NCBI GenBank assembly: GCA_965215225.1
Contig: OZ244039.1
Coordinates: 687,771 to 751,770 of the forward strand
DNA: 64,000 nucleotides
Reading direction: 5' to 3'
Origin: Gammaproteobacteria bacterium
GTDB taxonomy: Bacteria; Pseudomonadota; Gammaproteobacteria; CBDBNL01; JAAOII01
Each line of letters opens with the position of its first letter. Within the stretch, counting starts at the first letter, position 1. Below, in pieces: positions 22,773 to 64,000 of this stretch. Under the pieces are notes generated by a model, which saw only the letters and a list, made by a program, of their open reading frames with translations, did not search any database and had not been told where the DNA came from. The translations under genes and the position numbers were made by a program.

Positions 22773-23208
22773 AAATGAGATTATGTTGTATCTTTGGATT
22801 AAGGCCTTCCATTTGATTTCGGTAGTGGTTTGGTTTGCGGGGTTGTTCTATCTCCCACGCCTGTTTGTCTATCATAGTGCTACTGAGGATGAGAATATGC
22901 AAAAGAGCTATGCGACTATGGAGAGGAGGCTCTATCGTATCATTATGAACCCTGCGGTTATGATGGTTTTTGTTCTCGGGTTTGTTCTTCTCTGGCTAAA
23001 TCCAGCAGTGGCTTATGGCGGTTGGTTTCACATTAAGCTGGTCTTGGTCTTGGCATTGCTGGTATATCATATTTTTTGCGGTAGGATAATGAGATCCTTT
23101 GCTGAAGGAGATAATACTAGGACAACTGGCTTCTATCGTGTTTTCAATGAGGTTCCAACGGTTTTCCTTATAGCTATTGTCGTGCTTGCTGTGGTCAAAC
23201 CCTTCTGA
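22765..23208 (+). CDS. hemJ: Protoporphyrinogen IX oxidase HemJ (CopD/UPF0093 family membrane protein)
   Basis: LYLWIKAFHLISVVVWFAGLFYLPRLFVYH ... FNEVPTVFLIAIVVLAVVKPF, near full-length match to HemJ family. Confidence 0.75.
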   Translation: MIKNEIMLYLWIKAFHLISVVVWFAGLFYLPRLFVYHSATEDENMQKSYATMERRLYRIIMNPAVMMVFVLGFVLLWLNPAVAYGGWFHIKLVLVLALLVYHIFCGRIMRSFAEGDNTRTTGFYRVFNEVPTVFLIAIVVLAVVKPF

Positions 23209-30560: not shown

Positions 30561-31860
30561 TTTTTTTTAGCTTGTAGTTTGTGTAGTTTGTATAGGAGTT
30601 TGTCTTTCCCTTTCTTCACAGCCGCTACCTCTTATTCCTTTCTATTGCCAAGTTGGTATAGGGTTTTGTTTTCCCCTTTCTTTACAGACGCCACCTCTTA
30701 TTCCTTTCTATTGTCAAGTTGGTATAGGATTTTGTCTTTTCCCTTTCTTCGCAGCCGCCGCATTCCTTTATATTGTTAAGTTTGTATAGTTTTTGTCTTT
30801 TCCCTTTCTTCGCAGCCGCCGCATTCCTTTATATTGCTAAGTTTGTATAGGATTTTGTCTGTCCCTTTCTTCGCAGGTATTCATCTACAAGAGTTTACTT
30901 AGTTTGTAATTTGTATAGTTGTATAGGTTCTTGTCTTTCCCTTTCTTCGCAGGTATTCATCTACAAGAGTTTATTTAGTTTGTAATTTGTATAGTTGTAT
31001 AGGTTTTTGTCTTCCCCTTTCTTCGCAGCCGCCTCATTCCTTTATATTGCCAAGTTTGTATAGTTTTTGTCTTTTCCCTTTCTTCGCAGGTATTCATCTA
31101 CAAGAGTTTATTTAGTTTGTAATTTGTATCGGATTTTGTCTTTCCCTTTCTTCGCAGGTATTCATCTACAAGAGTTTATTTAGTTTGTAATTTGTATCGG
31201 ATTTTGTCTTTCCCTTTCTTCGCAGGTATTCATCTACAAGAGTTTATTTAGTTTGTAATTTGTATCGAATTTTGTCTTCTCCCTTTTCTTCACAGCCGCC
31301 CCCTCTCATTCCTTTCTATTGCCAAGTTTGTATAGTTTGTGTGGGGTTTTGTCTTTCCCCTCTTTTTTTCACAGGTATTTATCTATAAGAGTTTATTTAG
31401 TTTGTAGTTTGTATCGAATTTTGTCTTCCCTCTTTTTTTTCACAGCCGCCCCCTCTCATTCGTTTTTATTGCCAAGTTTGTATAGGTTTTTGTTTGTCCC
31501 TTTCTTCGCAGCCGCCGCATTCCTTTATATTGCCAAGTTTGTATAGGTTTTTGTCTTTCCCCTTTCTTCGCAGCCGCCGCATTCCTTTATATTGTTAAGT
31601 TTGTATAGTTTTTGTCTTTTCCCTTTCTTCGCAGCCGCCGCATTCCTTTATATTGCTAAGTTTGTATAGGATTTTGTCTGTCCCTTTCTTCGCAGGTATT
31701 CATCTACAAGAGTTTATTTTGTTTGTAATTTGTATAGTTGTATAGGTTTTTGTCTGTCCCTTTCTTTACAGTCGCCGCATTCCTTTATATTGCCAAGTTT
31801 GTATAGGATTTTGTCTTTCCCCTTCTTCACAGGTATTGATATATAAGAGCGTGAGTTTAC
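30560..31860. repeat. Complex non-coding minisatellite, ~20 units of two interleaved unit types (~61 bp ..tttgtctttccctttcttcgcagccgccgcattcctttatattgccaagtttgtatag.. and ~80 bp ..ttcgcaggtattcatctacaagagtttatttagtttgtaatttgtat..)
   Basis: Direct reading; pyrimidine-rich strand bias; only short spurious ORFs. Confidence 0.85.
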
Positions 31861-37570: not shown

Positions 37571-37603
37571 GGGGGGGGGGGGGGGGGGGGGGGGCTTTTT
37601 TTT
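37571..37603 (+). repeat. G24 homopolymer followed by T8 at the boundary between IS cluster and CRISPR array
   Basis: Direct count of 24 consecutive G (37571-37594), c, then 8 T. Confidence 0.9.
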
Positions 37604-37626: not shown

Positions 37627-40600
37627 GTTGTGATTTGCGGGCGCTCTCCGATGAGTTAAAATCCGTTTTATATTCATTGGATTGAAGTATCAGTTGTGAT
37701 TTGCGGGCGCTCTCCGATGAGTTAAAATAGCGCTGGGGCGGATCAGCGAAGCATTGGTGTTGTGATTTGCGGGCGCTCTCCGATGAGTTAAAATGCCTCC
37801 CATTTTGAGACCGCGGATGAGAAAGTTGTGATTTGCGGGCGCTCTCCGATGAGTTAAAATGGCGTCTTGAGATGAGAAGCAATGACTTGAGTTGTGATTT
37901 GCGGGCGCTCTCCGATGAGTTAAAATCAACCGAACACAAATCATCCGCTTGGGATTGTTGTGATTTGCGGGCGCTCTCCGATGAGTTAAAATTCGGTAAG
38001 AAAAACAAAGAATGGTGTTGTGGTTGTGATTTGCGGGCGCTCTCCGATGAGTTAAAATAATTGAATTAGACGATGGAAGCTCTTTGCGGTTGTGATTTGC
38101 GGGCGCTCTCCGATGAGTTAAAATTGGACACGGCTTATCCAGGCACGACCCCTTGTTGTGATTTGCGGGCGCTCTCCGATGAGTTAAAATAGTAAAGCCG
38201 TTCAGAGTGCGTTCGAGCGGGTTGTGATTTGCGGGCGCTCTCCGATGAGTTAAAATTAGCTACCCCGCTAAGACTATTTGCTGATTGTTGTGATTTGCGG
38301 GCGCTCTCCGATGAGTTAAAATGCGATGCGCGGGCGATATTTGCATGCGCCCGTTGTGATTTGCGGGCGCTCTCCGATGAGTTAAAATAAATAATAGGAG
38401 GGTGGTAAGAAAAATATTGTTGTGATTTGCGGGCGCTCTCCGATGAGTTAAAATCTGAAACGCAGCAATAGAATCGCCAACGACGTTGTGATTTGCGGGC
38501 GCTCTCCGATGAGTTAAAATTGCTACTTATCAGAAAGCGCTTACCCATCAGTTGTGATTTGCGGGCGCTCTCCGATGAGTTAAAATTCATTCGCCTCTTT
38601 CTTATTGAACTAGGCGTTGTGATTTGCGGGCGCTCTCCGATGAGTTAAAATACTTATGGATTGACAAGAGTGAACTGAGTAGTTGTGATTTGCGGGCGCT
38701 CTCCGATGAGTTAAAATACCGAAGTATACATTTGATTCATCCTTTCGGTTGTGATTTGCGGGCGCTCTCCGATGAGTTAAAATTAAGACACTTTTTTCCT
38801 CCAATCGCTTGAGTTGTGATTTGCGGGCGCTCTCCGATGAGTTAAAATATCACCTTTGCTTGAACGAACGGTTCAAGTGTTGTGATTTGCGGGCGCTCTC
38901 CGATGAGTTAAAATGACTTCTGAACTAGTCCGTGCTAAAATAACAGTTGTGATTTGCGGGCGCTCTCCGATGAGTTAAAATGCAACGCAGGAGCGAACTG
39001 AACGCTATACCGTTGTGATTTGCGGGCGCTCTCCGATGAGTTAAAATCCGTTAAGAATGAGGTAGCGGTCGTGATAAGTTGTGATTTGCGGGCGCTCTCC
39101 GATGAGTTAAAATGCCCTGGCCGCTCGGGCTTCGGCTTCGAGGGTTGTGATTTGCGGGCGCTCTCCGATGAGTTAAAATTTTTTATAAATCGCGTTATTA
39201 TTAGACTCTGTTGTGATTTGCGGGCGCTCTCCGATGAGTTAAAATGGTCGGTGATGGTAGCCGAAGAGAACGGCAGTTGTGATTTGCGGGCGCTCTCCGA
39301 TGAGTTAAAATAGTAAAGCGTGTGCCTCCCCCTCCCGTTATGTTGTGATTTGCGGGCGCTCTCCGATGAGTTAAAATACTGATACCCTACTTGGCAACCT
39401 GCGGAGGGTTGTGATTTGCGGGCGCTCTCCGATGAGTTAAAATTCTACCGCCTGAGACACTTACTGCCTCAGGGTTGTGATTTGCGGGCGCTCTCCGATG
39501 AGTTAAAATTTCACGCTGGCTCGCCAATGGCTAAGTTGGGTTGTGATTTGCGGGCGCTCTCCGATGAGTTAAAATACTTCCCCTGATGAGAACGGGCGGA
39601 ACGCCGTTGTGATTTGCGGGCGCTCTCCGATGAGTTAAAATGCTGAATGGTCGGTGGCATATAAGGAACAAGTTGTGATTTGCGGGCGCTCTCCGATGAG
39701 TTAAAATCGCCAAGCAGCTAAGCCAGATATCATGGGAGTTGTGATTTGCGGGCGCTCTCCGATGAGTTAAAATTTCTTAAGTAAGAAAAGTTAAGAGCAG
39801 AGAGTTGTGATTTGCGGGCGCTCTCCGATGAGTTAAAATCGTTATGATGAGAAAGAACTCAAGGGATTAGTTGTGATTTGCGGGCGCTCTCCGATGAGTT
39901 AAAATCGATATCACTAAGGACGAGACCGAACAAGCGTTGTGATTTGCGGGCGCTCTCCGATGAGTTAAAATCTGTATGACACCAGCAATAACTTCAATGA
40001 TGTTGTGATTTGCGGGCGCTCTCCGATGAGTTAAAATCTTACCCATCAGAAGATGCACGCTCGCAACGTTGTGATTTGCGGGCGCTCTCCGATGAGTTAA
40101 AATCTATTTTTGCTTCTTTGTGGCTAGTTGCCAGTTGTGATTTGCGGGCGCTCTCCGATGAGTTAAAATACCTGAAATTTCAGTGGTGAAATCAGTGAAG
40201 TTGTGATTTGCGGGCGCTCTCCGATGAGTTAAAATGGCTATGTCGGAGTAGATAAGCGTCTGAAAGTTGTGATTTGCGGGCGCTCTCCGATGAGTTAAAA
40301 TCGGCTCTTGGCTGGGTCTTTATAGGCATTAGTTGTGATTTGCGGGCGCTCTCCGATGAGTTAAAATTGCTCTGCAGACCATTGAATTAACATTTGAGTT
40401 GTGATTTGCGGGCGCTCTCCGATGAGTTAAAATACGGAGGTGATACATGAGCCCAGAACTATTGTTGTGATTTGCGGGCGCTCTCCGATGAGTTAAAATC
40501 GCCACCAACCGAGAGAGACGGGCAGGGCAGTTGTGATTTGCGGGCGCTCTCCGATGAGTTAAAATCGATATAAAGGCAAGGGGATGGCAAGATAGGTTGT

Positions 40601-43600
40601 GATTTGCGGGCGCTCTCCGATGAGTTAAAATCGGCAGTATAGGGATACCATTTGAAGCACTGTTGTGATTTGCGGGCGCTCTCCGATGAGTTAAAATAGA
40701 CAAGGGCAGATACGCCCTCGACATTAAGGTTGTGATTTGCGGGCGCTCTCCGATGAGTTAAAATCACCTCTTTAATCAATGACAACTACGCAAGTTGTGA
40801 TTTGCGGGCGCTCTCCGATGAGTTAAAATTAGAAATTAAACGCCCCGCGCCACGCCTGAGTTGTGATTTGCGGGCGCTCTCCGATGAGTTAAAATATATA
40901 GGACGGGCTGGTGCTATTATACCAGTTGTGATTTGCGGGCGCTCTCCGATGAGTTAAAATAAGTCCCTGCTCACAGGCGAGCGCGCCCGCGTTGTGATTT
41001 GCGGGCGCTCTCCGATGAGTTAAAATACGGCAATCGCGATAATCAATGAGATGAACGTTGTGATTTGCGGGCGCTCTCCGATGAGTTAAAATTAAATATG
41101 ATGTGCTGCTTAAAACCATCGCGTTGTGATTTGCGGGCGCTCTCCGATGAGTTAAAATTAAGTAAAGAGGCGATGGTCTATTATGCTAAGTTGTGATTTG
41201 CGGGCGCTCTCCGATGAGTTAAAATCAATATTTGCACCCGGTCTTAATGCCAGCCGTTGTGATTTGCGGGCGCTCTCCGATGAGTTAAAATCTACCTATC
41301 ACGATGTCGAGCGCTACGATAGTTGTGATTTGCGGGCGCTCTCCGATGAGTTAAAATTCCGGGTGATGGAGCATGCCATAGATATAAGTTGTGATTTGCG
41401 GGCGCTCTCCGATGAGTTAAAATGATGGGGTATGATAGAATATTAGTTAGACAGTTGTGATTTGCGGGCGCTCTCCGATGAGTTAAAATTATCTCCAATA
41501 TTAGCCAGCCTTATCCTTAGTTGTGATTTGCGGGCGCTCTCCGATGAGTTAAAATGATAGTCCAACCAATCATTAAACGCTTGCAGTTGTGATTTGCGGG
41601 CGCTCTCCGATGAGTTAAAATCAACTTATCCAAATCTACCAGGTCATAATAGTTGTGATTTGCGGGCGCTCTCCGATGAGTTAAAATCTCTCATATTGTC
41701 TTATAGCACAATAAAGAGTTGTGATTTGCGGGCGCTCTCCGATGAGTTAAAATAATGTGAAAAAGCAAGCGACCTGTTTTATAGTTGTGATTTGCGGGCG
41801 CTCTCCGATGAGTTAAAATTCTTGCGAGCCGCGGGCTTGCGCCAGAACTGTTGTGATTTGCGGGCGCTCTCCGATGAGTTAAAATATAAAAAAGACAATA
41901 GAGCAACAACAATACGTTGTGATTTGCGGGCGCTCTCCGATGAGTTAAAATAGCCAGGTGAAGCGAGCCACCTATTCTTTAGTTGTGATTTGCGGGCGCT
42001 CTCCGATGAGTTAAAATGGCTATCTTGGTATATGTGTTCATAATTTTGTTGTGATTTGCGGGCGCTCTCCGATGAGTTAAAATCTATTCGGCGGAGTAGA
42101 GCTACTACATAAGGTTGTGATTTGCGGGCGCTCTCCGATGAGTTAAAATGACCGCTCCGCCCATTCTTCTTTATGCCGGGTTGTGATTTGCGGGCGCTCT
42201 CCGATGAGTTAAAATGGCGGACCTCTGCCATGGCTTTTCCATATCGTTGTGATTTGCGGGCGCTCTCCGATGAGTTAAAATTAGCCCCAACCCAGATATA
42301 ACTAGAATTAAGTTGTGATTTGCGGGCGCTCTCCGATGAGTTAAAATGCCATCAGCCACCATCCAAACTTCTTATAAGTTGTGATTTGCGGGCGCTCTCC
42401 GATGAGTTAAAATGGTTATCTTCGCCAGTCTCTTCGCAACATTGTTGTGATTTGCGGGCGCTCTCCGATGAGTTAAAATCTATCGGCGATTCAAAAGACC
42501 CGGCTAAAAGTTGTGATTTGCGGGCGCTCTCCGATGAGTTAAAATATTTAATCTATTGCTAATTATCATCATATAGTTGTGATTTGCGGGCGCTCTCCGA
42601 TGAGTTAAAATGTTTGTAGGGCTGGTAGTTTTGAGGTTTGTGTTGTGATTTGCGGGCGCTCTCCGATGAGTTAAAATCTTCTTTGCCGAATTGATACGCC
42701 AGCTTTAGTTGTGATTTGCGGGCGCTCTCCGATGAGTTAAAATCTGTGGTTTCTCTGATGTCTGTGAAGCCCAGTTGTGATTTGCGGGCGCTCTCCGATG
42801 AGTTAAAATAGAGAAAAATAAAGTAGCCCCACCTTTTAGGTTGTGATTTGCGGGCGCTCTCCGATGAGTTAAAATCCTCAGTGTTGCTTATCTTTTCAAT
42901 AGTTCGTTGTGATTTGCGGGCGCTCTCCGATGAGTTAAAATCACCAAGAGTGCTATGAATTTGCGCCTCTTGTTGTGATTTGCGGGCGCTCTCCGATGAG
43001 TTAAAATCACTGAGAACCAAGCCATCCTTTCTCACCTGTTGTGATTTGCGGGCGCTCTCCGATGAGTTAAAATCTCCCTCCTGAACCAGAACATGACCGA
43101 GCCGTTGTGATTTGCGGGCGCTCTCCGATGAGTTAAAATGCGGGTGATCCCGGCGGCTATCTCTACCCGGTTGTGATTTGCGGGCGCTCTCCGATGAGTT
43201 AAAATCACATAGGCATACCTTCTATGCCTCGGCGGGTTGTGATTTGCGGGCGCTCTCCGATGAGTTAAAATACTTGACTGATTAGCAAGGCGTGATTCAA
43301 GGTTGTGATTTGCGGGCGCTCTCCGATGAGTTAAAATCAAAGTAGAACCAATCGAAATAAGAAGTCCGTTGTGATTTGCGGGCGCTCTCCGATGAGTTAA
43401 AATTCAAACTATAAGCTGAACTACTTGGAATATGTTGTGATTTGCGGGCGCTCTCCGATGAGTTAAAATCCAAGAACGGCGCGGGGGAGTATGAGGGGAG
43501 TTGTGATTTGCGGGCGCTCTCCGATGAGTTAAAATTCCCAGCCCGAGTCAGCGTATCTTTCAATGGTTGTGATTTGCGGGCGCTCTCCGATGAGTTAAAA

Positions 43601-46600
43601 TAAGAGGACTGGTCGGCTTGGCGGGTGGTAGTTGTGATTTGCGGGCGCTCTCCGATGAGTTAAAATTCTTAAGGACGAGGTGGCGAAGGGTGATGAGTTG
43701 TGATTTGCGGGCGCTCTCCGATGAGTTAAAATTACGAGTGTAGATGAAGCAGCTCACTATTAGTTGTGATTTGCGGGCGCTCTCCGATGAGTTAAAATAG
43801 AGACCAAAAACGGCCAGAGGATGATAAAGTTGTGATTTGCGGGCGCTCTCCGATGAGTTAAAATTTCTTATGACTGGGGCTCAGCTAGCCCATTGTTGTG
43901 ATTTGCGGGCGCTCTCCGATGAGTTAAAATTCCCTTTTGCCTCTAAATAAGCAGATTGAAGTTGTGATTTGCGGGCGCTCTCCGATGAGTTAAAATTGGT
44001 TCTTTCGAAGAGACCGATGAAAGGGAGTTGTGATTTGCGGGCGCTCTCCGATGAGTTAAAATGGCTTTCAGGTATTCTATTGAAGAGCAGAAGTTGTGAT
44101 TTGCGGGCGCTCTCCGATGAGTTAAAATTGGCGGCTGCTGGGGAGTTGTCAATTTCAGGTTGTGATTTGCGGGCGCTCTCCGATGAGTTAAAATCAGCAA
44201 GGAATTTTCAGAAAAGCTAGAACAGTTGTGATTTGCGGGCGCTCTCCGATGAGTTAAAATGGGCTAGTATGGGGAGGTTATTAATTGGTCGTTGTGATTT
44301 GCGGGCGCTCTCCGATGAGTTAAAATGCCGCCGGAGCATATAGACAAGAATCCGGTGTTGTGATTTGCGGGCGCTCTCCGATGAGTTAAAATGCTGAATC
44401 GCAGGGCAGATGGGTCTGGCAGGTTGTGATTTGCGGGCGCTCTCCGATGAGTTAAAATGTGTTGCCAAAGCTGAGCTAGCTCATCCGCGTTGTGATTTGC
44501 GGGCGCTCTCCGATGAGTTAAAATGAAGCAGTTTATCCGTGCTCTTGAAAGGAAGTTGTGATTTGCGGGCGCTCTCCGATGAGTTAAAATGAAGCAGTTT
44601 ATCCGTGCTCTTGAAAGGAAGTTGTGATTTGCGGGCGCTCTCCGATGAGTTAAAATCACATTCAGAAAGAAATCGGGCTGGAGTTTGTTGTGATTTGCGG
44701 GCGCTCTCCGATGAGTTAAAATTGCCACCAGTTAACGGTCTAGCATATTGGAGTTGTGATTTGCGGGCGCTCTCCGATGAGTTAAAATACCGGGCCAGAT
44801 GAGGAGTATAGGGATTGGGTTGTGATTTGCGGGCGCTCTCCGATGAGTTAAAATCATAGCCTCCTTAGTTAACTCATCCCGCCAGTTGTGATTTGCGGGC
44901 GCTCTCCGATGAGTTAAAATTTAGGAGACTATTATGCGAACTAAAATTCCGTTGTGATTTGCGGGCGCTCTCCGATGAGTTAAAATGAAAGAGACGGCAT
45001 ATGCCCCAAATGGATAGTTGTGATTTGCGGGCGCTCTCCGATGAGTTAAAATAGTAGTAGCCGTGCCCTGTGTGATATTGGAGTTGTGATTTGCGGGCGC
45101 TCTCCGATGAGTTAAAATTTTCTGGGCGATTGGCTTACCAGAAAAGAGTTGTGATTTGCGGGCGCTCTCCGATGAGTTAAAATGTGATAAGAGCGATATA
45201 GTTAAGATACTTCGTTGTGATTTGCGGGCGCTCTCCGATGAGTTAAAATGGCCGGGAAGGTGGTCCCAGCCGGGACCAGGTTGTGATTTGCGGGCGCTCT
45301 CCGATGAGTTAAAATAAGGAACGGCGGAAGGATTGATGGGATTAAGTTGTGATTTGCGGGCGCTCTCCGATGAGTTAAAATGAGCAAATTAGCGAGCAGC
45401 TTAATCAATAAGTTGTGATTTGCGGGCGCTCTCCGATGAGTTAAAATGGTCGCGGTGGCAATCCCGCCGCCAACCTCGTTGTGATTTGCGGGCGCTCTCC
45501 GATGAGTTAAAATGAACATAAGGGAGGACGAGTTGAAGGGGAAGTTGTGATTTGCGGGCGCTCTCCGATGAGTTAAAATCTGCCAAAAATCGTCCCTTCT
45601 CTTGACAAGGTTGTGATTTGCGGGCGCTCTCCGATGAGTTAAAATTTGAATAAAATAAATACCTGTTTTACTATAGTTGTGATTTGCGGGCGCTCTCCGA
45701 TGAGTTAAAATTCAATCATCTTTCTTTCTTTCTCGATTCATGTTGTGATTTGCGGGCGCTCTCCGATGAGTTAAAATGATGAGCCGTGGCATTATACCAG
45801 CCGCGACGTTGTGATTTGCGGGCGCTCTCCGATGAGTTAAAATCGGCTTTAAGGTGCTGAACTGATGAAGTTAGTTGTGATTTGCGGGCGCTCTCCGATG
45901 AGTTAAAATCTATTCGCTTGAACGCCTTGCCTTCTTACTGTTGTGATTTGCGGGCGCTCTCCGATGAGTTAAAATTTTATTGAATATCAGACTTACGAAG
46001 ATGCAGTTGTGATTTGCGGGCGCTCTCCGATGAGTTAAAATATCAAGTATTGCCAATGCCTCTCCTTGATGGTTGTGATTTGCGGGCGCTCTCCGATGAG
46101 TTAAAATTGAGATTAAAGTCAGTATCAGCCAAGAAAGGTTGTGATTTGCGGGCGCTCTCCGATGAGTTAAAATTAACTTTCATAATACTAAACAAAAAAA
46201 GGCGTTGTGATTTGCGGGCGCTCTCCGATGAGTTAAAATAATGCTTTAGGCAAAGTCATCGGCTCGCTAGTTGTGATTTGCGGGCGCTCTCCGATGAGTT
46301 AAAATCGGGAGGGCTGGAGGGTTTTATCACCTACAGTTGTGATTTGCGGGCGCTCTCCGATGAGTTAAAATATGCGAGGGGCTGCCATATCCATATCACC
46401 GGTTGTGATTTGCGGGCGCTCTCCGATGAGTTAAAATATGCACGGAGCGGGGGAGCTGAGCATCTCGGTTGTGATTTGCGGGCGCTCTCCGATGAGTTAA
46501 AATGAACGATTTGGAGCTTCTTGGCGTTTTGCAGTTGTGATTTGCGGGCGCTCTCCGATGAGTTAAAATGCCAGATAATCAAGCCCATCCCAAACCAATG

Positions 46601-49600: not shown

Positions 49601-52600
49601 TAAAATCCGCTTGGGAAGAATTAAACATAGTGATAGGTTGTGATTTGCGGGCGCTCTCCGATGAGTTAAAATCGCCGATCACACCACATCAATCGGCTCG
49701 CGGTTGTGATTTGCGGGCGCTCTCCGATGAGTTAAAATATATGGCAGGGGGGACCATTATCCAGCACGGTTGTGATTTGCGGGCGCTCTCCGATGAGTTA
49801 AAATGTCTGTTGATTCAAAATTATCATCGCCATAGTTGTGATTTGCGGGCGCTCTCCGATGAGTTAAAATCGCTATTCCTTTCTCTACTGCCATTATACA
49901 GTTGTGATTTGCGGGCGCTCTCCGATGAGTTAAAATCATAAATAAATGTATTATGCTTACTATTATGTTGTGATTTGCGGGCGCTCTCCGATGAGTTAAA
50001 ATGACTACTGATATTCCGGCATCCGGTCTTGAGTTGTGATTTGCGGGCGCTCTCCGATGAGTTAAAATTGTAGTAAGAACGAGTCGGTTGGGTAGTATGT
50101 TGTGATTTGCGGGCGCTCTCCGATGAGTTAAAATGGATTTGCCGTCCATCAAAATAATAGATTATGTTGTGATTTGCGGGCGCTCTCCGATGAGTTAAAA
50201 TCCATTGGCATCGATTCAGTTCAAACTGAAAGTTGTGATTTGCGGGCGCTCTCCGATGAGTTAAAATCGATTATTGCCCATAAAACCAGAAGGGGCAGTT
50301 GTGATTTGCGGGCGCTCTCCGATGAGTTAAAATCGCTGACTTATGGTGAAGCGGCGACTGTTGGTTGTGATTTGCGGGCGCTCTCCGATGAGTTAAAATC
50401 GGATGATACCGTGGATGTTCTTACCCTCCGTTGTGATTTGCGGGCGCTCTCCGATGAGTTAAAATTGACTTTATGAAGATAAACCAGCATGCGCTGTTGT
50501 GATTTGCGGGCGCTCTCCGATGAGTTAAAATTTCAAACCAAATATCCTTTTCTGAATGTTCGTTGTGATTTGCGGGCGCTCTCCGATGAGTTAAAATCTG
50601 ATGATGTAATTATTGAAGGGTCCCAGGGTTGTGATTTGCGGGCGCTCTCCGATGAGTTAAAATAAAAGTTCTGGGCTACTCATCGCACGGGCGGTTGTGA
50701 TTTGCGGGCGCTCTCCGATGAGTTAAAATGCTCGTTTTGTTGGTTTTTTTGGTGCGTCAGTTGTGATTTGCGGGCGCTCTCCGATGAGTTAAAATAATTC
50801 GTTTCCGCATCGGTCATGTTCTTAGGTTGTGATTTGCGGGCACTCTCCGATGAGTTAAAATTTTTCTTGTATGGGACTTATGAATGCTATTGTTGTGATT
50901 TGCGGGCGCTCTCCGATGAGTTAAAATTACCAATCCTATATTCCCCCCAGATACTAAGTTGTGATTTGCGGGCGCTCTCCGATGAGTTAAAATCCGAGGC
51001 AACCTACATCCTCACCACCCCCGGTTGTGATTTGCGGGCGCTCTCCGATGAGTTAAAATCGGTTGAATTTCAACAATTCAGACAACCCAGTTGTGATTTG
51101 CGGGCGCTCTCCGATGAGTTAAAATCAATAAGAACGGATTGAATGATAACTGAATGTTGTGATTTGCGGGCGCTCTCCGATGAGTTAAAATTAATGGTTT
51201 GTGTTTAGTTTCTTTGCCTTTGTTGTGATTTGCGGGCGCTCTCCGATGAGTTAAAATTATGCCTATAAAGAGCCAATGGCACTACCAGTTGTGATTTGCG
51301 GGCGCTCTCCGATGAGTTAAAATTCTGCGGGCGGAGGAGTGGAATTCTATCATAGTTGTGATTTGCGGGCGCTCTCCGATGAGTTAAAATACACGCTCCA
51401 GGACTTATTTAGTCCTGTGCGTTGTGATTTGCGGGCGCTCTCCGATGAGTTAAAATTGGATGGCTAAGCTGAAGCTCCTTTCATTAGTTGTGATTTGCGG
51501 GCGCTCTCCGATGAGTTAAAATAGCTGGTAGGGATTTATCAGCTGGAGGTTAGTTGTGATTTGCGGGCGCTCTCCGATGAGTTAAAATTATCGGTCGTCT
51601 TATCAATACCTCATTAACGTTGTGATTTGCGGGCGCTCTCCGATGAGTTAAAATGGTCAGCTAGCCCGTTCAGTATAGGCTGGTGTTGTGATTTGCGGGC
51701 GCTCTCCGATGAGTTAAAATGTATATTTTAAGGGCGGCGGGGAGTTTATTGTTGTGATTTGCGGGCGCTCTCCGATGAGTTAAAATAGGCTCACGCTTAG
51801 GCGCTCGGGTTGAATTGTTGTGATTTGCGGGCGCTCTCCGATGAGTTAAAATTCACGGACCGAGGCAATGATTTATTGGGACGTTGTGATTTGCGGGCGC
51901 TCTCCGATGAGTTAAAATGATGATAGCCATGAGGGTTGGTTTTTGAATGTTGTGATTTGCGGGCGCTCTCCGATGAGTTAAAATGCGCCAAAGATGGCAG
52001 CTGAATAATAAAGTGTTGTGATTTGCGGGCGCTCTCCGATGAGTTAAAATATGATTGGCTAGGCAAGGGTATAAAGAGCCGTTGTGATTTGCGGGCGCTC
52101 TCCGATGAGTTAAAATCTCTGTCCCGCTCATACCAATATTCATCTTGTTGTGATTTGCGGGCGCTCTCCGATGAGTTAAAATCCAAACCAAAATGGCGCT
52201 TATAAGCCAAAGGTTGTGATTTGCGGGCGCTCTCCGATGAGTTAAAATGATGACCTTGACACTCTATCGGATAGAGTGGTTGTGATTTGCGGGCGCTCTC
52301 CGATGAGTTAAAATCGGGGAAAACGCCCCCCGTAGCAATAACTTGTTGTGATTTGCGGGCGCTCTCCGATGAGTTAAAATCGCCCGCGCACCGCCTTACT
52401 GCACTATGACGTTGTGATTTGCGGGCGCTCTCCGATGAGTTAAAATGCGCTCGTTAGCTCGGGTCTTTCTTAACTCGTTGTGATTTGCGGGCGCTCTCCG
52501 ATGAGTTAAAATCTTAGCTAATCAGGCAATAACAGGGGCAGCGTTGTGATTTGCGGGCGCTCTCCGATGAGTTAAAATTAATGAACTGAAATCCCCCAGA

Positions 52601-55600
52601 AGCTAATCGTTGTGATTTGCGGGCGCTCTCCGATGAGTTAAAATAAAAGTTCTATCGCTATCCCCATCAGCCTCGTTGTGATTTGCGGGCGCTCTCCGAT
52701 GAGTTAAAATCAAATGAACCGGGTGATCATCTTAAAGAAGGTTGTGATTTGCGGGCGCTCTCCGATGAGTTAAAATCTAGGGTCTCTTCGACCCGCAAGA
52801 CCAAAGGTTGTGATTTGCGGGCGCTCTCCGATGAGTTAAAATCAAGTATTTTATTAAGGCGTGCGCGCGGGTGTTGTGATTTGCGGGCGCTCTCCGATGA
52901 GTTAAAATGATGATTTGTTGGTTATAAATCTCACCAAAGTTGTGATTTGCGGGCGCTCTCCGATGAGTTAAAATTCGCACTCTTGCTTCAATCTCCGCCA
53001 GTCCGTTGTGATTTGCGGGCGCTCTCCGATGAGTTAAAATTGGTCGCCAGGATGATCGAGAAAGTGGGGAGTTGTGATTTGCGGGCGCTCTCCGATGAGT
53101 TAAAATGAAGGGCAAGCCCCACCCTGCCACCGTGGCGTTGTGATTTGCGGGCGCTCTCCGATGAGTTAAAATAAGAGGGGCTTGATCAATTCTTCGACCA
53201 AGGTTGTGATTTGCGGGCGCTCTCCGATGAGTTAAAATTTGCGAGCCAAGTGTTCGCGATCACGGGGGCGTTGTGATTTGCGGGCGCTCTCCGATGAGTT
53301 AAAATGATCAACCGTCGCGTCAATCGGCTCTTGTTGTTGTGATTTGCGGGCGCTCTCCGATGAGTTAAAATCATTTAGTTTGTTTGCCGGGCAAAGTGAG
53401 AGTTGTGATTTGCGGGCGCTCTCCGATGAGTTAAAATACCGATGGCGCGCGGCTCATCCGAGCCGAAGTTGTGATTTGCGGGCGCTCTCCGATGAGTTAA
53501 AATTTGGGGATGGATGCAAATTGGCCGCCCCTAGTTGTGATTTGCGGGCGCTCTCCGATGAGTTAAAATGATGATTTGTTGGTTATAAATCTCACCAAAG
53601 TTGTGATTTGCGGGCGCTCTCCGATGAGTTAAAATGCTGCGCCAGCTGGGGCAAGGGCTTGGCGAGTTGTGATTTGCGGGCGCTCTCCGATGAGTTAAAA
53701 TTTAAGGTTGGTGGGAGTGAGCGTGAGCGCGGTTGTGATTTGCGGGCGCTCTCCGATGAGTTAAAATAGAAGATAAAGGAGGAATTATTACGCCTATGTT
53801 GTGATTTGCGGGCGCTCTCCGATGAGTTAAAATTTATTGCGATCAGGCTTCACCCGAATCTGAGTTGTGATTTGCGGGCGCTCTCCGATGAGTTAAAATA
53901 TCAGCGGCGACTACAAAAGAGGCGCTAGAGTTGTGATTTGCGGGCGCTCTCCGATGAGTTAAAATTTACTTTTCTTTACTTAGTTTACTACAGTAGTTGT
54001 GATTTGCGGGCGCTCTCCGATGAGTTAAAATCCCTATACTCCTCATCTGGCCCGGTATGCAGTTGTGATTTGCGGGCGCTCTCCGATGAGTTAAAATCAA
54101 GCCTGTGGTATCCACTGAATTGGAGCAGTTGTGATTTGCGGGCGCTCTCCGATGAGTTAAAATACTAAAATCGACCAACAAAGGAGAAGGCACGTTGTGA
54201 TTTGCGGGCGCTCTCCGATGAGTTAAAATCGACCTCATATAGAGCCGAAAGCAGACCTAGTTGTGATTTGCGGGCGCTCTCCGATGAGTTAAAATAATAG
54301 CGCATGCGGTTCTCTTTCTTAGGGAGTTGTGATTTGCGGGCGCTCTCCGATGAGTTAAAATTCATTGTATTATACAACGCAGTCAGCACATGTTGTGATT
54401 TGCGGGCGCTCTCCGATGAGTTAAAATCGACCTCATATAGAGCCGAAAGCAGACCTAGTTGTGATTTGCGGGCGCTCTCCGATGAGTTAAAATTTTAAAC
54501 ACATCCAAAGCCGATTCAATAGCGTTGTGATTTGCGGGCGCTCTCCGATGAGTTAAAATGTGAGCGGGACTCTGCCCGACCAATTTGACGTTGTGATTTG
54601 CGGGCGCTCTCCGATGAGTTAAAATGCTCGTACAGCTGATTAGTACCAAACTCTTGTTGTGATTTGCGGGCGCTCTCCGATGAGTTAAAATCGTGAAAAA
54701 CAACACCAGTATTGCTAGGCAGTTGTGATTTGCGGGCGCTCTCCGATGAGTTAAAATAAAATAATCATCCTAGATCTCCGTAGAGGTGTTGTGATTTGCG
54801 GGCGCTCTCCGATGAGTTAAAATAATCCAAAGAAGATCGGCTATTATCTGAAGTTGTGATTTGCGGGCGCTCTCCGATGAGTTAAAATCGATTCCGAGAA
54901 CGAGATGATCTGTGCGAGGTTGTGATTTGCGGGCGCTCTCCGATGAGTTAAAATGGTGCTCGGCCGAGGTATTATTAAAGACCAGTTGTGATTTGCGGGC
55001 GCTCTCCGATGAGTTAAAATCGGCGTAGCTAAGGACATTCAATCGGTAAAGTTGTGATTTGCGGGCGCTCTCCGATGAGTTAAAATCGCCCGCCATCATA
55101 ACTCACCGATTGGCCGGTTGTGATTTGCGGGCGCTCTCCGATGAGTTAAAATTCAACCGAGGGGCGAGTATCTTAATTGATGGTTGTGATTTGCGGGCGC
55201 TCTCCGATGAGTTAAAATTGGTGGGGGGAGATCGAACGGGAGGACAAGTTGTGATTTGCGGGCGCTCTCCGATGAGTTAAAATAAAATTAATGTCAACGC
55301 CATAATGGGTGAGGTTGTGATTTGCGGGCGCTCTCCGATGAGTTAAAATCCCATTTTATTTTACTAGCGTCCATCGATAGTTGTGATTTGCGGGCGCTCT
55401 CCGATGAGTTAAAATTCATAATTTTTCCTCAAAGTTATGATTACTGTTGTGATTTGCGGGCGCTCTCCGATGAGTTAAAATCTATTTTAGGTAGTGATAT
55501 AAGCGCTGAATGTTGTGATTTGCGGGCGCTCTCCGATGAGTTAAAATGAGCAGCAGAAGTCAATAAGTGGCTTTCTAGTTGTGATTTGCGGGCGCTCTCC

Positions 55601-58600
55601 GATGAGTTAAAATAAGGCTAAGACGACCGCGATCACATTCTATGTTGTGATTTGCGGGCGCTCTCCGATGAGTTAAAATGGCAACTCCTTAAAGATTACC
55701 CCGAGCTAGTTGTGATTTGCGGGCGCTCTCCGATGAGTTAAAATGAGAAGGGTAAGGGGCGTTACCAAACCGATGTTGTGATTTGCGGGCGCTCTCCGAT
55801 GAGTTAAAATTCATTCTCAAATTCAGCCGTGAGTGTTACCGTTGTGATTTGCGGGCGCTCTCCGATGAGTTAAAATCCCATGCAACCAGCCCTACAACTG
55901 AGCCCGGGTTGTGATTTGCGGGCGCTCTCCGATGAGTTAAAATCGGGGGCGCCGCAATGATAGATAAGCCCCTGGTTGTGATTTGCGGGCGCTCTCCGAT
56001 GAGTTAAAATAGATTAGTGAAGGCGACTTATCGATGATTGGTTGTGATTTGCGGGCGCTCTCCGATGAGTTAAAATGCTTAGTCACGCTGAATTGACCGG
56101 ATGAGAGTTGTGATTTGCGGGCGCTCTCCGATGAGTTAAAATTCGGTACTAAGGACGGGGCGGCTTCAATAAGTTGTGATTTGCGGGCGCTCTCCGATGA
56201 GTTAAAATTTTTAATAGGGAAGTCGCCTTCTTTGCTGAGTTGTGATTTGCGGGCGCTCTCCGATGAGTTAAAATGAACGCCCCGCGATAAATACGGCATG
56301 GACCGTTGTGATTTGCGGGCGCTCTCCGATGAGTTAAAATCGAGCTAAACTGAATGTGGGCGCGCGGTCGTTGTGATTTGCGGGCGCTCTCCGATGAGTT
56401 AAAATTTATAATCATAAGCCTTACTTCTATTATGAGTTGTGATTTGCGGGCGCTCTCCGATGAGTTAAAATCATAGTCATCGGGGTTTGTTCCCACTGCC
56501 CGTTGTGATTTGCGGGCGCTCTCCGATGAGTTAAAATTATGAATGAGCGATTTAATGAGTTATGCCGGTTGTGATTTGCGGGCGCTCTCCGATGAGTTAA
56601 AATCGGCAATCCTAAGGCGCTCTGGCGGAGTAAGTTGTGATTTGCGGGCGCTCTCCGATGAGTTAAAATCGATAAGCCTAGCTGCACATCAGCGGTCGTG
56701 TTGTGATTTGCGGGCGCTCTCCGATGAGTTAAAATTTGAAGGGTGCTGTGAATAGCACCACTAAGGTTGTGATTTGCGGGCGCTCTCCGATGAGTTAAAA
56801 TTAATCGGGGCTGGATTAAAGAGAAAGAGAGGTTGTGATTTGCGGGCGCTCTCCGATGAGTTAAAATTATAGCTCATTCAACGACTTTATGATGGATGTT
56901 GTGATTTGCGGGCGCTCTCCGATGAGTTAAAATGAATGATATCATAGAGACGCGCTTATCACAGTTGTGATTTGCGGGCGCTCTCCGATGAGTTAAAATC
57001 TTAAATAGTGAGGCGCCCGCGGGGGAGCGTTGTGATTTGCGGGCGCTCTCCGATGAGTTAAAATCGATAAGCCTAGCTGCACATCAGCGGTCGTCGTTGT
57101 GATTTGCGGGCGCTCTCCGATGAGTTAAAATTATTACTCATCGGGTCTTATTACTTTGGTCGTTGTGATTTGCGGGCGCTCTCCGATGAGTTAAAATCTT
57201 CTCTGAGCAGAAGTATAGAATCGTGTTGTTGTGATTTGCGGGCGCTCTCCGATGAGTTAAAATTTATAGCGCGCCTTAAGGCAAGGCGCACGGTTGTGAT
57301 TTGCGGGCGCTCTCCGATGAGTTAAAATAGTTGATAACAATGAGCTTAATCATTATGAGTTGTGATTTGCGGGCGCTCTCCGATGAGTTAAAATCGGGCT
57401 CTAAACCAAATCTTAATAAATTTGGTTGTGATTTGCGGGCGCTCTCCGATGAGTTAAAATACTTATAGCGCGCCTTAAGGCAAGGCGCACGTTGTGATTT
57501 GCGGGCGCTCTCCGATGAGTTAAAATATCGCTATCCCTCACTCGCAAGGCAACAATGTTGTGATTTGCGGGCGCTCTCCGATGAGTTAAAATTGAACTCT
57601 ATGACACGGAGGGTAAATTTGTGTTGTGATTTGCGGGCGCTCTCCGATGAGTTAAAATGTATTATTTAAGGCAGCATTCATAGATGAAGTTGTGATTTGC
57701 GGGCGCTCTCCGATGAGTTAAAATAAGTCGGCTACCTTATCTACCATCATTGCCGTTGTGATTTGCGGGCGCTCTCCGATGAGTTAAAATTACCCGAGAC
57801 GGCTGAGTATCAGTTCTCGCGTTGTGATTTGCGGGCGCTCTCCGATGAGTTAAAATTCGCTAAGCACTGGCGGTCCAGCTTGTCTAGTTGTGATTTGCGG
57901 GCGCTCTCCGATGAGTTAAAATTGATACCTACTCATTCAATCAAGCAGTAGAGTTGTGATTTGCGGGCGCTCTCCGATGAGTTAAAATTTAATCGGGACT
58001 CAATCGTCTGGCTTACTAGTTGTGATTTGCGGGCGCTCTCCGATGAGTTAAAATCCAGCGAGGTGATGCGCCTGCCTTTATAGGGTTGTGATTTGCGGGC
58101 GCTCTCCGATGAGTTAAAATTATTCACTATAATGATGATATAACAATCAGGTTGTGATTTGCGGGCGCTCTCCGATGAGTTAAAATCTTTTATTCCGTCA
58201 GATTGCCTTATAATAGGTTGTGATTTGCGGGCGCTCTCCGATGAGTTAAAATACATCGCTTGGGGATGATGGAGTGCCTTAAGTTGTGATTTGCGGGCGC
58301 TCTCCGATGAGTTAAAATTTGTTGCCTTGCGAGTGAGGGATAGCGATAGTTGTGATTTGCGGGCGCTCTCCGATGAGTTAAAATTAAGAAGCGATTGAAA
58401 GGATGTGCTATCATGTTGTGATTTGCGGGCGCTCTCCGATGAGTTAAAATCTTATCAGCTCAGCTCTACCAGCCGGCAAGTTGTGATTTGCGGGCGCTCT
58501 CCGATGAGTTAAAATGAGCGGGGCCCCGCTAAAGAGATACTGGTGGTTGTGATTTGCGGGCGCTCTCCGATGAGTTAAAATACGCCATACCCCGAACTAG

Positions 58601-61600
58601 ATCGAGCGATAGTTGTGATTTGCGGGCGCTCTCCGATGAGTTAAAATGCTCGGTATATTCATCAATCTGCTCCTTACGTTGTGATTTGCGGGCGCTCTCC
58701 GATGAGTTAAAATAGTCTTTATTATATGAATTAGCCAGCCATTGTTGTGATTTGCGGGCGCTCTCCGATGAGTTAAAATAGTCCATCAATTTGGACCGGG
58801 TGAATAATAGTTGTGATTTGCGGGCGCTCTCCGATGAGTTAAAATAGAGAAATATTAGCTGAGTTAGCTAGTCGAGTTGTGATTTGCGGGCGCTCTCCGA
58901 TGAGTTAAAATTCGATCCAGCCGAGCCGTATCATCCTTATGTTGTGATTTGCGGGCGCTCTCCGATGAGTTAAAATGGTTATCTTCGCCAGTCTCTTCGC
59001 AACATTGTTGTGATTTGCGGGCGCTCTCCGATGAGTTAAAATGAGATTTGTTTTCATCCCGCTAATTCAGTTGTTGTGATTTGCGGGCGCTCTCCGATGA
59101 GTTAAAATTGTAGCGCCTATAAGGAATGTCGCACTTCCGTTGTGATTTGCGGGCGCTCTCCGATGAGTTAAAATGACTACTTAAAACTGCCGAGCTCAGT
59201 GAACGTTGTGATTTGCGGGCGCTCTCCGATGAGTTAAAATATATTCATCAGCCAATCTCTTATAACGCCCGTTGTGATTTGCGGGCGCTCTCCGATGAGT
59301 TAAAATCGATCTAGTAATAACTATTGAAGTATTACCAGTTGTGATTTGCGGGCGCTCTCCGATGAGTTAAAATACCTTTTGTTATTAATATAATTCCATA
59401 GGAGTTGTGATTTGCGGGCGCTCTCCGATGAGTTAAAATTCTTATTCCGCTAGTCCGTGGGTAGGAAAGGTTGTGATTTGCGGGCGCTCTCCGATGAGTT
59501 AAAATCCTCCAACCCAACCACTTCTACCCGACCCAGTTGTGATTTGCGGGCGCTCTCCGATGAGTTAAAATAGCCGGCGCCCGAACCTCGAAAGCGTTAA
59601 AGTTGTGATTTGCGGGCGCTCTCCGATGAGTTAAAATCATTCCCCCCAACTAAATTAAAGTAGTTAGGTTGTGATTTGCGGGCGCTCTCCGATGAGTTAA
59701 AATAACTAAGGGCTCTTTCTAACATTCTTAAAGGTTGTGATTTGCGGGCGCTCTCCGATGAGTTAAAATCGCTCTTGCCATTGCCTCAGCTGCTGGTTGG
59801 TTGTGATTTGCGGGCGCTCTCCGATGAGTTAAAATCCACGCGGGAGGAAGGACTTATTTAATGGGTTGTGATTTGCGGGCGCTCTCCGATGAGTTAAAAT
59901 CCCCGCTCATATTGATGACAACGGATTGTTGTTGTGATTTGCGGGCGCTCTCCGATGAGTTAAAATCACTAGCCCCGTGTGGCTGCAATTAAAGGTGTTG
60001 TGATTTGCGGGCGCTCTCCGATGAGTTAAAATGCAGCAAATCGGCTCTTATAGTCAGGATGAGTTGTGATTTGCGGGCGCTCTCCGATGAGTTAAAATTG
60101 ATGAAACGATCAACCGAGCCGCGGGCTGGTTGTGATTTGCGGGCGCTCTCCGATGAGTTAAAATGACCAGCGTCAAGAAAGAGTCAGTAGAAGCGTTGTG
60201 ATTTGCGGGCGCTCTCCGATGAGTTAAAATCATCACTTCCTATTCCGAATTCATTATTAAGTTGTGATTTGCGGGCGCTCTCCGATGAGTTAAAATTGGG
60301 AGGGATGAGCATAGGGACCTATTGGAGTTGTGATTTGCGGGCGCTCTCCGATGAGTTAAAATGCAATCGGTAATCTCTATATTCAGATATCCGTTGTGAT
60401 TTGCGGGCGCTCTCCGATGAGTTAAAATTCGATCCCAGTCCAAACAGCTGAGGCGGCGGTTGTGATTTGCGGGCGCTCTCCGATGAGTTAAAATGCTATC
60501 GCTCACCAATGTGCCGGGCGCACCGTTGTGATTTGCGGGCGCTCTCCGATGAGTTAAAATCTATTCATTATATCTAGTTGTCAACAATAGGTTGTGATTT
60601 GCGGGCGCTCTCCGATGAGTTAAAATCCTAATGAGGTCCGACAAGGCTTTATCTATGTTGTGATTTGCGGGCGCTCTCCGATGAGTTAAAATCTTTGGTG
60701 TTGGGCAGGGGTTTATCTTACTGTTGTGATTTGCGGGCGCTCTCCGATGAGTTAAAATGCATAGTAGTCTTGCGCCTCAGCATTCCTAGTTGTGATTTGC
60801 GGGCGCTCTCCGATGAGTTAAAATACCCAGCTGACTCATACCTACTATGCGACCGTTGTGATTTGCGGGCGCTCTCCGATGAGTTAAAATTAACACTACA
60901 AGACAAGCTACCACTGCTTAGTTGTGATTTGCGGGCGCTCTCCGATGAGTTAAAATCGATAAAAAGAAGTGGGCCTGGCTCGAAGAGTTGTGATTTGCGG
61001 GCGCTCTCCGATGAGTTAAAATTTGCGCTGCGCTAAGGCGTTTTGGACGGCAGTTGTGATTTGCGGGCGCTCTCCGATGAGTTAAAATATTAGGGTAATA
61101 AATCATAACTCGTTTTGAGTTGTGATTTGCGGGCGCTCTCCGATGAGTTAAAATTTAAATACCTACGCCAAAATAAAATAACCAGTTGTGATTTGCGGGC
61201 GCTCTCCGATGAGTTAAAATTGGGCGTGGTGCGAGGAGTGAGATATACCAGTTGTGATTTGCGGGCGCTCTCCGATGAGTTAAAATGTGAGCCTCCCTGC
61301 TTAGAGCACCAAGACGGTTGTGATTTGCGGGCGCTCTCCGATGAGTTAAAATCTTATTACGTTTCGGGTTAGAGCCAGATCGGTTGTGATTTGCGGGCGC
61401 TCTCCGATGAGTTAAAATTAAAGAGCCGATCCCTAATCCATTCGACCAGTTGTGATTTGCGGGCGCTCTCCGATGAGTTAAAATGAAGTGCGGGCCGAGG
61501 CGATTAAGCGCGATGTTGTGATTTGCGGGCGCTCTCCGATGAGTTAAAATACCCGTCTTGGTCGAGGCATGCGATGGCGGGTTGTGATTTGCGGGCGCTC

Positions 61601-63925
61601 TCCGATGAGTTAAAATAACAACTCATTTGGAGGTTCAGATTCTTGTGTTGTGATTTGCGGGCGCTCTCCGATGAGTTAAAATTCACTTTGGCTTTGGTGA
61701 ATGGCTCTAATGTTGTGATTTGCGGGCGCTCTCCGATGAGTTAAAATTGGCAAGCCAACGAGCGTAAGTCGAGCGGGGTTGTGATTTGCGGGCGCTCTCC
61801 GATGAGTTAAAATAACACGGATAACTTTGCCGAGCCGCCCGAAGTTGTGATTTGCGGGCGCTCTCCGATGAGTTAAAATGGACCGCTTCATAATCCTGCC
61901 CGGCCGCTAGTTGTGATTTGCGGGCGCTCTCCGATGAGTTAAAATGATCGAATTGACGCCCAGCAGGATCTGGGCGTTGTGATTTGCGGGCGCTCTCCGA
62001 TGAGTTAAAATCATCACCGCGACGATCGCGGGATGCAAGTCGTTGTGATTTGCGGGCGCTCTCCGATGAGTTAAAATTTTTTTGGCTAGCTGCCTGAACC
62101 AACTAAAGTTGTGATTTGCGGGCGCTCTCCGATGAGTTAAAATAATATATTAAGGAAGTCGCACGCGCAACCAGTTGTGATTTGCGGGCGCTCTCCGATG
62201 AGTTAAAATCCGACATATATTCATTCCAGCGCGTCTTATGTTGTGATTTGCGGGCGCTCTCCGATGAGTTAAAATCAATCGCCTCAGGTTCTCTTACCTT
62301 CATAGGTTGTGATTTGCGGGCGCTCTCCGATGAGTTAAAATCCCCAGACAAATGACTTCTCTTACTAATGAGTTGTGATTTGCGGGCGCTCTCCGATGAG
62401 TTAAAATCGCGCCCGCCGCTCAAGCTTAGGATTGCCCGTTGTGATTTGCGGGCGCTCTCCGATGAGTTAAAATGATAATCTAATAAGGATGCGAGCGCGG
62501 ATGTTGTGATTTGCGGGCGCTCTCCGATGAGTTAAAATGCTGGCTAAGAACTATCTGTTGGAGTTAGGGTTGTGATTTGCGGGCGCTCTCCGATGAGTTA
62601 AAATCTGAAACTGGCGGGCTTCAAGCCCAGCTGGGTTGTGATTTGCGGGCGCTCTCCGATGAGTTAAAATATGTGCAGGCTGAGATAGGAGCGCACTTCA
62701 GTTGTGATTTGCGGGCGCTCTCCGATGAGTTAAAATGCAAAGGACATACTTATCCCATCAGTGCTAGTTGTGATTTGCGGGCGCTCTCCGATGAGTTAAA
62801 ATGGCGTTTGAAAGTTGGGTATCAAGAAACGGGTTGTGATTTGCGGGCGCTCTCCGATGAGTTAAAATTAGGGATAGGGAAGCGCCAATGCTGAGCTAGT
62901 TGTGATTTGCGGGCGCTCTCCGATGAGTTAAAATGTATGTCCTTTGCCTCGTTTACTGAGTTGCGTTGTGATTTGCGGGCGCTCTCCGATGAGTTAAAAT
63001 CAATAAAGAACGAGGACCTGGTGAATATTGGTTGTGATTTGCGGGCGCTCTCCGATGAGTTAAAATTAGCTACCCCGCTAAGACTATTTGCTGATTGTTG
63101 TGATTTGCGGGCGCTCTCCGATGAGTTAAAATTGACTCAATGGCGGATGTTGTGAGCGGGACGTTGTGATTTGCGGGCGCTCTCCGATGAGTTAAAATCC
63201 TTCCCAATGCCTATAAAGAATGGCTTATGTTGTGATTTGCGGGCGCTCTCCGATGAGTTAAAATAAAAGCACCACAGGGGCTCTTTTAATAGAGGTTGTG
63301 ATTTGCGGGCGCTCTCCGATGAGTTAAAATGGATAGCTTTATGTTAGCCGCCCGCAATCAGTTGTGATTTGCGGGCGCTCTCCGATGAGTTAAAATTCAG
63401 ATTAAGGGAATTACTAGTCAGATTAAGTTGTGATTTGCGGGCGCTCTCCGATGAGTTAAAATCAGTTCAATGCACGCCTTCATCGGCGAGGAGTTGTGAT
63501 TTGCGGGCGCTCTCCGATGAGTTAAAATCCAGGTAGTTCAGATTATCCCACACTAAGAGTTGTGATTTGCGGGCGCTCTCCGATGAGTTAAAATTTCTAT
63601 TAAAGGAGATATACTATGGAGAATGTTGTGATTTGCGGGCGCTCTCCGATGAGTTAAAATTCTTAGTCACATCGTTATCACCAATCTCATGTTGTGATTT
63701 GCGGGCGCTCTCCGATGAGTTAAAATTAACACTACAAGACAAGCTACCACTGCTTAGGTTGTGATTTGCGGGCGCTCTCCGATGAGTTAAAATTATTTTT
63801 TGGGCTTCTGTTCTTGAGCTTAGGTTGTGATTTGCGGGCGCTCTCCGATGAGTTAAAATTGAGGACGAGCACATTTATACCGACATTGAGTTGTGATTTG
63901 CGGGCGCTCTCCGATGAGTTAAAAT
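37627..63925 (+). CRISPR. CRISPR array: ~399 copies of 36-bp repeat GTTGTGATTTGCGGGCGCTCTCCGATGAGTTAAAAT, spacers 30 bp (few 29/31), ~398 spacers; one repeat variant G17A at 50842
   Basis: Exact 66-bp periodicity verified at multiple points (37627, 37693, 37759, 37825, 37891, 37957 ... 63890); unique spacers between identical repeats; array ends 63925 followed by unique sequence. Confidence 0.97.
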
Positions 63926-64000
63926 ACTATCCGCAAAAAACAGCGTGAGCAGTGAGAAAAGCCGCTGAGCAAATAAAAAACTGATTTGTTCTGGCGGCTT

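Follow-up and report, generated by a model that had tools for sequence, protein, structure and literature searches.

A 398-spacer CRISPR array in a gammaproteobacterial genome, probably part of a type II-C CRISPR-Cas9 locus

The type II-C systems of Neisseria meningitidis and Campylobacter jejuni, which pair short palindromic repeats that are clustered and regularly interspaced (CRISPR) with the nuclease Cas9, hold spacers of 30 nucleotides (nt) between 36-nt repeats that begin with GTTGT or GTTTT and end in a -10-like hexamer (TACAAT, TAAAAT), and their arrays adjoin cas2 with neither csn2 nor cas4 in between. Promoters embedded in the repeats have been demonstrated in both species (PMC5965381). 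In type II-C arrays the cas-proximal, last repeat is where new spacers are added, and the oldest, 'extra' repeat is the first; a survey of 364 such arrays counted 7208 repeats, or about 20 per array (PMC12080349). Typical bacterial arrays hold fewer than 50 spacers, and the longest in CRISPRCasdb (2019), that of Haliangium ochraceum DSM 14365, holds 587. Here we describe an array of 398 spacers in a 64,000-nt stretch of DNA, the window, from a Gammaproteobacteria bacterium (assembly GCA_965215225.1, contig OZ244039.1, positions 687,771 to 751,770). We argue that it very probably belongs to a type II-C CRISPR-Cas9 system whose cas2, cas1 and cas9 genes would lie just beyond nt 64000.

The window array resembles the N. 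meningitidis and C. jejuni arrays in repeat and spacer length and in both ends of the repeat, and adjoins cas2 in the same way. It differs in holding about 20 times more spacers, in a weak -35 element with no TG extension and a negative promoter scan, in a first (oldest, 'extra') repeat that is unmutated, in a 24-nt poly-G tract at this old end, and in a cas2 frame without a canonical stop codon. The H. ochraceum array is likewise a single array of several hundred spacers in the extreme tail of sizes, but it belongs to another organism with a larger genome, and the window array is about one third shorter. An original prediction, made from the letters of the window alone, had ranked the array among the largest described. 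Its 20-fold excess over the type II-C average is indeed extreme, but it falls below the 587-spacer record.

Array structure and the adjoining cas2 sequence

The feature is confirmed as a genuine CRISPR array, with direct repeats of constant length and distinct spacers of similar length. The original prediction of about 398 spacers over 26.3 kb at 37627-63925 became an exact count of 399 repeats and 398 spacers (Table 1), and Tandem Repeats Finder reported a period of 66 with 398.6 copies. The 36-nt repeat, GTTGTGATTTGCGGGCGCTCTCCGATGAGTTAAAAT, runs from 5' GTTGTGATTTGC to 3' GTTAAAAT and is present as 398 exact copies and one G17A variant, as had been claimed. The strand given for the array is that of GTTGTG...AAAAT, the presumed sense of the CRISPR RNA (crRNA). 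Neither the repeat nor its reverse complement occurs elsewhere in the 64-kb window. Most of the 396 spacers lying between two exact repeats are 30 nt long (367), with 17 of 29 nt and 12 of 31 nt, and both spacers flanking the variant repeat are 30 nt.

Table 1 Coordinates of the array and of the features at its two ends
Feature	Position	Strand	Remarks
CRISPR array, 399 repeats (36 nt) and 398 spacers (29-31 nt)	37627..63925	+	26,299 nt
Sole variant repeat, G17A	50826..50861	+	changed base at 50842
Poly-G tract (24 G), then C and T8, ending 32 nt before the first repeat	37571..37594	+	cas-distal array flank
cas2, last eight conserved codons (KPPEQISF)	63977..64000	-	gene body past window end
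Leader-like region, about 48 nt, from the cas-proximal repeat to the related cas2 stop position	63926..63973	+	
Terminator-like hairpin, about 15 bp, overlapping the cas2 end	63959..64000	.	TTTT after it on the minus strand
Read-through extension of the cas2 frame	63875..63976	-	stop at 63875-63877, within the last spacer

The 75 nt that follow the array, taken in the original prediction simply as non-repeat sequence, are free of repeats but not anonymous, as they include the minus-strand 3' end of cas2. The encoded KPPEQISF is identical to residues in the ...EKPPEQISFF* C-terminus of several type II-C Cas2 proteins (P0146, P0163, P0164, P0180, P0190 and P0215), and Cas2 in 13 close relatives ends in ...PPEQLSLF* or ...APEQLSFF*. 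Position and strand match the cas2 ends of related loci, although only eight codons are visible. In 12 of 13 related loci 47-51 nt separate the cas2 stop from the last repeat, and in the remaining one (L016) 100 nt do so. On this sequence evidence cas2 abuts the array, with no csn2 (as in type II-A) or cas4 (as in type II-B) between them. The region 63890-64000, which takes in the hairpin, has a minimum free energy of -38.2 kcal/mol (z = -4.06; none of 200 shuffles folded as well), and hairpins occur at the corresponding place in related loci.

Arrays with related repeats provide the context for this cas2 end. The exact 36-nt repeat had no match in GTDB representative genomes, JGI metagenomes, IMG/VR or the literature, and a lineage-specific pattern of two repeat copies had none in JGI metagenomes. 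A degenerate scan for three GTTGTGAT words at a period of 62-70 nt found 119 loci, many of which have 36-nt repeats of the form GTTGTGATTTG(C/A)...TAnnnT. Their gammaproteobacterial hosts include Methylobacter, Methylomagnum, Hydrogenovibrio, a Bathymodiolus symbiont, Ruthturnera and metagenome-assembled genomes (MAGs) whose names refer to sponges, Spongiihabitans and Poriferihabitaceae; other hosts belong to Kiritimatiellia/Lentisphaerae and Bacteroidota. Pfam identified Cas9 (HNH_4, RuvC_III and Cas9_a domains; ~1030-1070 amino acids, aa), Cas1 and Cas2 beside three arrays of the family.

The 35 loci in which 1 kb or more of sequence past the array could be seen were surveyed with phmmer. 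Of these, 31 have cas2 on the opposite strand about 50-120 nt past the last repeat (1.6 kb in L040), and 28 of these 31 also show cas1 and/or cas9, with cas9 counted in 23. Such a layout, in which a minimal cas9-cas1-cas2 operon converges on the array, is that of type II-C systems. At its 5' end the window repeat has 11-12 nt, and at its 3' end TAnnnT, in common with arrays adjoining Cas9, Cas1 and Cas2, and together with the 36/30 geometry this repeat family agrees with assignment to type II-C. Very long arrays also recur in the family, several of them in apparent long-read assemblies. An 8-kb block of a Flavisolibacter MAG is entirely array, and two related long-read assemblies hold at least 150 (L127) and at least 119 (L119) repeats.

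Given the cas2 tail in the window and the presence of cas2 downstream of the array in 31 of 35 family loci, orphan status is unlikely. The original prediction had left two alternatives, a cas locus downstream of nt 64000 or an orphan array, and these same observations support the former and speak against the latter. The apparent lack of cas genes would arise because the window ends 75 nt after the last repeat; most likely, the window holds the cas-distal 99.9% of a type II-C locus. By comparison with the related loci, cas1, cas9 and the trans-activating crRNA (tracrRNA) are expected in the next 5-6 kb past nt 64000.

Several results weigh against this assignment. No cas1, cas9 or tracrRNA sequence lies in the 64-kb window. 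Anti-repeats of tracrRNA were found in nine of 14 related loci scanned, upstream of cas9 and 4.3-5.4 kb past the array, with scores of 38-51, and the window itself contained no convincing anti-repeat (best scores 31-35). While TAAAAT at repeat nt 31-36 matches the -10 consensus at five of six positions, and TAnnnT occupies these positions in 23 of 35 related loci, the candidate -35 element, TTGCGG, 16 nt upstream of TAAAAT, matches at only three of six, and a sigma-70 consensus promoter scan of the repeats returned no promoters. No protospacers were found in phage or plasmid records or in six IMG/VR spacer scans. Finally, the cas2 frame is not closed at the conserved stop position and extends for another 31 codons. 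Where relatives have TTY and a stop codon, the window has TTA TTT; relatives end in ...PPEQISFF*, and the window reads ...PPEQISFLFAQRLF..., continuing as LFAQRLFSLLTLFFADSILTHRRAPANHNSMSV across the leader and the last repeat. The missing stop could reflect a tolerated C-terminal extension, a first sign of decay of the adaptation module, or a sequencing error.

Two further observations concern the leader. Its segment 63929-63944 is complementary to repeat nt 1-15, and was considered as a tracrRNA anti-repeat. This candidate was rejected, as its duplex energies were no better than those of shuffled sequences and the anti-repeats of the nine relatives are found upstream of cas9. In 26 related type II-C loci the fold of the last repeat and leader was on average more stable than that of shuffled controls (mean z = -1.06), RNAalifold recovered no consensus structure from the alignment of this region, and an invariant AA (xTAA motif) lies 12-13 nt from the repeat in 15 loci.

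Strain comparison and alternative explanations

A search with LpxC led to a sister strain (ENA ERZ25070776, contig_12, 1.8 Mb) whose flanks are 96.5-98.7% identical to those of the window. Its array has the identical repeat, begins at the corresponding chromosomal site and is preceded by the same poly-G flank. Its 42 visible spacers, which are the first, cas-distal ones, include no match to any of the 398 in the window. The repeats of the window sum to 14.4 kb with one substitution, and over the same interval the two strains have diverged by 1.3-3.5% in their flanks. This contrast and the lack of overlap between the spacers fit an array that was built or rebuilt once the strains had split. A search for the Cas2 of the sister strain with a chimeric probe (L058 Cas2 joined to the window tail) did not find it among the best 120 matches, and the sole long match, P0170, was rejected as belonging to an unrelated locus. 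Peptides of spurious open reading frames (ORFs) in the array had no match in the protein collection, where such ORFs are not kept.

Related type II-C loci of uncultured bacteria offer a comparison. L127 (ENA ERZ19489113; LpxC 68% identical) encodes cas9 (1256 aa), cas1 and cas2 beside its likewise very long array, which has the repeat GTTGTGACTTGCGGGCGAATACAGACCGATTAAAAT and runs off the fetched DNA; its Cas2, P0161, ends in ...APPEQISFF. L128-L130 (ENA ERZ250697xx) are three strains of another relative with arrays of 43, 82 and 56 spacers, none in common, although Cas2 is identical in all three and two of the strains are ~96% identical in their flanks. These loci and L058 (Thermodesulfobacteriota MAG OZ242184.1) share with the window the repeat start GTTGTGAYTTG and a -10-like 3' end, TTAAAAT in L127 and L058 and TTATAAT in L128-L130. 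Cas2 ends in ...PPEQISFF in L127 and L128-L130, close to the PPEQISF of the window, and in ...APQQITLF in L058; the leader between cas2 and array is again ~48-50 nt in L058 and L128-L130, as opposed to 117 nt in L127. The middle of the window repeat differs, with nine mismatches to L058 and ten to L127. All of these arrays occupy other chromosomal sites than that of the window, those of L128-L130 are shorter, and every cas2 has a normal stop codon, unlike the window frame. As a separate observation, Cas9 in the nearest organismal relatives, L127 (5328-9098) and L128-L130 (5326-9072), is 1248-1256 aa, ~200 aa longer than the 1030-1070-aa Cas9 at most other family arrays.

The assignment to a type II-C locus with its cas genes past the window edge has to be weighed against other explanations of the same data. 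The likeliest of these is that the array is functionally orphaned or decaying, its cas operon having been inactivated starting with cas2, which would make the 398 spacers a fossil record. A cas2 frame that lacks its stop and reads through hairpin, leader and last repeat could be expected of such a locus, cas1 and cas9 are unseen, fragments of the insertion sequences (ISs) IS30 and IS5 lie near the other end of the array, and the split of cas9 into two ORFs in L058, the locus with the closest repeat, indicates that decay does occur in the family. However, a C-terminal extension need not inactivate Cas2. Nor would decay readily account for 398 of 399 repeats remaining identical while the flanks of the two strains have diverged, and the lack of any shared spacer among the 42 from the sister strain points to acquisition or turnover after the split. 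We regard this reading as improbable.

Two other readings are very remote. The array could be of another CRISPR type, such as type V or VI-B, with its II-C resemblance coincidental; 36-nt repeats with 30-nt spacers also occur in type VI-B and some type V systems, and the window shows no effector gene. Against this, the combination of 5' GTTGTGATTTGC and 3' TAAAAT is common to arrays adjoining cas9-cas1-cas2, the gene abutting the array is a cas2 with a II-C-type C-terminus, and the repeat, placed in type VI-B or V orientation, has neither a terminal stem such as GTTG...CAAC nor a 3' stem-loop. It is equally hard to credit that the array is a satellite or an assembly artefact made by concatenating reads. 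Long arrays are hard to assemble and there is an unusual poly-G run at one end, but 391 of the 398 spacers are distinct sequences, in line with the original prediction that spacers differ apart from listed duplicates. Arrays of more than a hundred repeats stand in the related long-read assemblies, and the same repeat, site and poly-G flank in the independently assembled sister strain rule an artefact out.

Cas-distal flank and upstream genes

The first repeat, at the cas-distal end, is intact and unmutated. Apart from the poly-G tract before it, the 64-kb window has no run of at least 8 nt of G or C. The tract is kept in the sister strain at 27 G (L123 17506-17532). It may act as a transcription insulator or be a slippage-prone tract. 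A degenerate terminal repeat was sought at this flank and rejected, the local alignment score of 14 being at chance level (shuffles 14.6 ± 2.2).

ORFs in the first 30 kb are housekeeping genes, namely nrdB, a glpD-like gene, argG, ilvE, trkH, hemA, prfA, dciA, lpxC, dnaX, ybaB, recR, map and transporters. Between 30.5 and 37.6 kb there are tandem repeats, the IS30 and IS5 fragments and an ORF of unknown function. Searches with Pfam, NCBIfam and PADLOC found no Cas domain in any ORF of at least 90 aa from 1 to 37.6 kb, and no defence effector in the upstream flank except one type II DNA methyltransferase, bearing out the earlier description of this side as housekeeping genes and IS debris without cas genes. 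No Rfam family was found in 30-39 kb.

Further differences between strains lie in this flank. The type II (N6/N4) DNA methyltransferase gene, at 12375-13244, has no visible restriction partner and is cleanly missing from the sister strain, in which L001 joins window positions 12348 and 13247. Inside dnaX (23208-25640), Lys/Glu-rich tandem repeats of 27 and 54 nt at 24385-24862 fall in the DnaX linker. DnaX has 810 aa here; that of ENA contig_12 has 865 aa and that of a JGI/Logan strain 728 aa, differences that probably stem from these linker repeats. About 1.3 kb of intergenic tandem repeats at 30585-31849 (units of 61-76 and 136 nt) sit between a sodium:solute symporter gene and the ORF of unknown function, and are also present in the sister strain at 77-90% identity (mostly 80-87%), with no Rfam match. 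They were rejected as a CRISPR because no unique spacers separate the units.

Spacer content, proposed operation and significance

Six spacer sequences are present twice in the array, with the two copies side by side in two cases (44525/44591 and 46768/46834), and in two further pairs the same protospacer is represented at 30 and 31 nt, with one extra 3' base. Spacer GC content is 46.8%, compared with 44.4% in the flank. No spacer has a self-target in the window flank. Among the window spacers at 57527/58319, 44789/54032 and 53041 and the L123 spacer at 18526, some derive from one target site on opposite strands, and one window spacer and one sister-strain spacer have a 17-nt core in common with differing flanks, suggesting that the mobile elements encountered by the two strains were related but not the same. 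Overlapping spacers give single flanking bases only, too few to define a protospacer adjacent motif.

From the layout of the window and of its relatives, we propose that the plus-strand order is poly-G flank, oldest repeat, 398 spacers, newest repeat, leader of ~48 nt with hairpin, and cas2, presumably followed by cas1, cas9 and tracrRNA, with the cas genes on the minus strand and converging on the array. As in other type II-C systems, Cas1-Cas2 would integrate each new spacer at the repeat next to cas2, near 63925, duplicating that repeat. crRNAs would be made in the plus direction, probably, as in Neisseria and Campylobacter, from the -10-like TAAAAT at the 3' end of every repeat, and per-repeat promoters of this kind would make a 26-kb array independent of one long transcript. 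Each crRNA would pair with tracrRNA and guide Cas9 to DNA. Acquisition polarity, per-repeat promoters, and the presence and integrity of cas1, cas9 and tracrRNA are all predicted here from comparison with described systems and related loci. The original prediction had found it hard to explain how 398 near-perfect repeats are maintained. This difficulty dissolves, because the neighbouring repeat is copied at each integration. The G17A variant arose later, by point mutation of an internal repeat.

The array thus stands at the extreme of a known subtype without setting a record, and calls for no new kind of system. The host genome is probably ~2.3 Mb, judged from a near-identical LpxC on a 2,317,988-nt NCBI/ENA contig that is unconfirmed as the source, and the array would make up ~1.1% of a genome of that size. 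With 398 spacers here, at least 150 repeats in a related genome, and no visible spacer shared between strains that are 97-98% identical, we tentatively hypothesize that very long, fast-turnover type II-C arrays characterize this poorly sampled lineage of small-genome Gammaproteobacteria, although we consider this less likely than not to hold. Under this hypothesis repeat-embedded promoters would lift the penalty on array length, and adaptation would work despite, or because of, a Cas2 extended by 31 residues from the leader and newest repeat. If per-repeat promoters are confirmed, the array would offer a natural test of whether crRNA dilution and transcript polarity limit array length. Its spacers form a deep record of the mobile elements met by an uncultured lineage.

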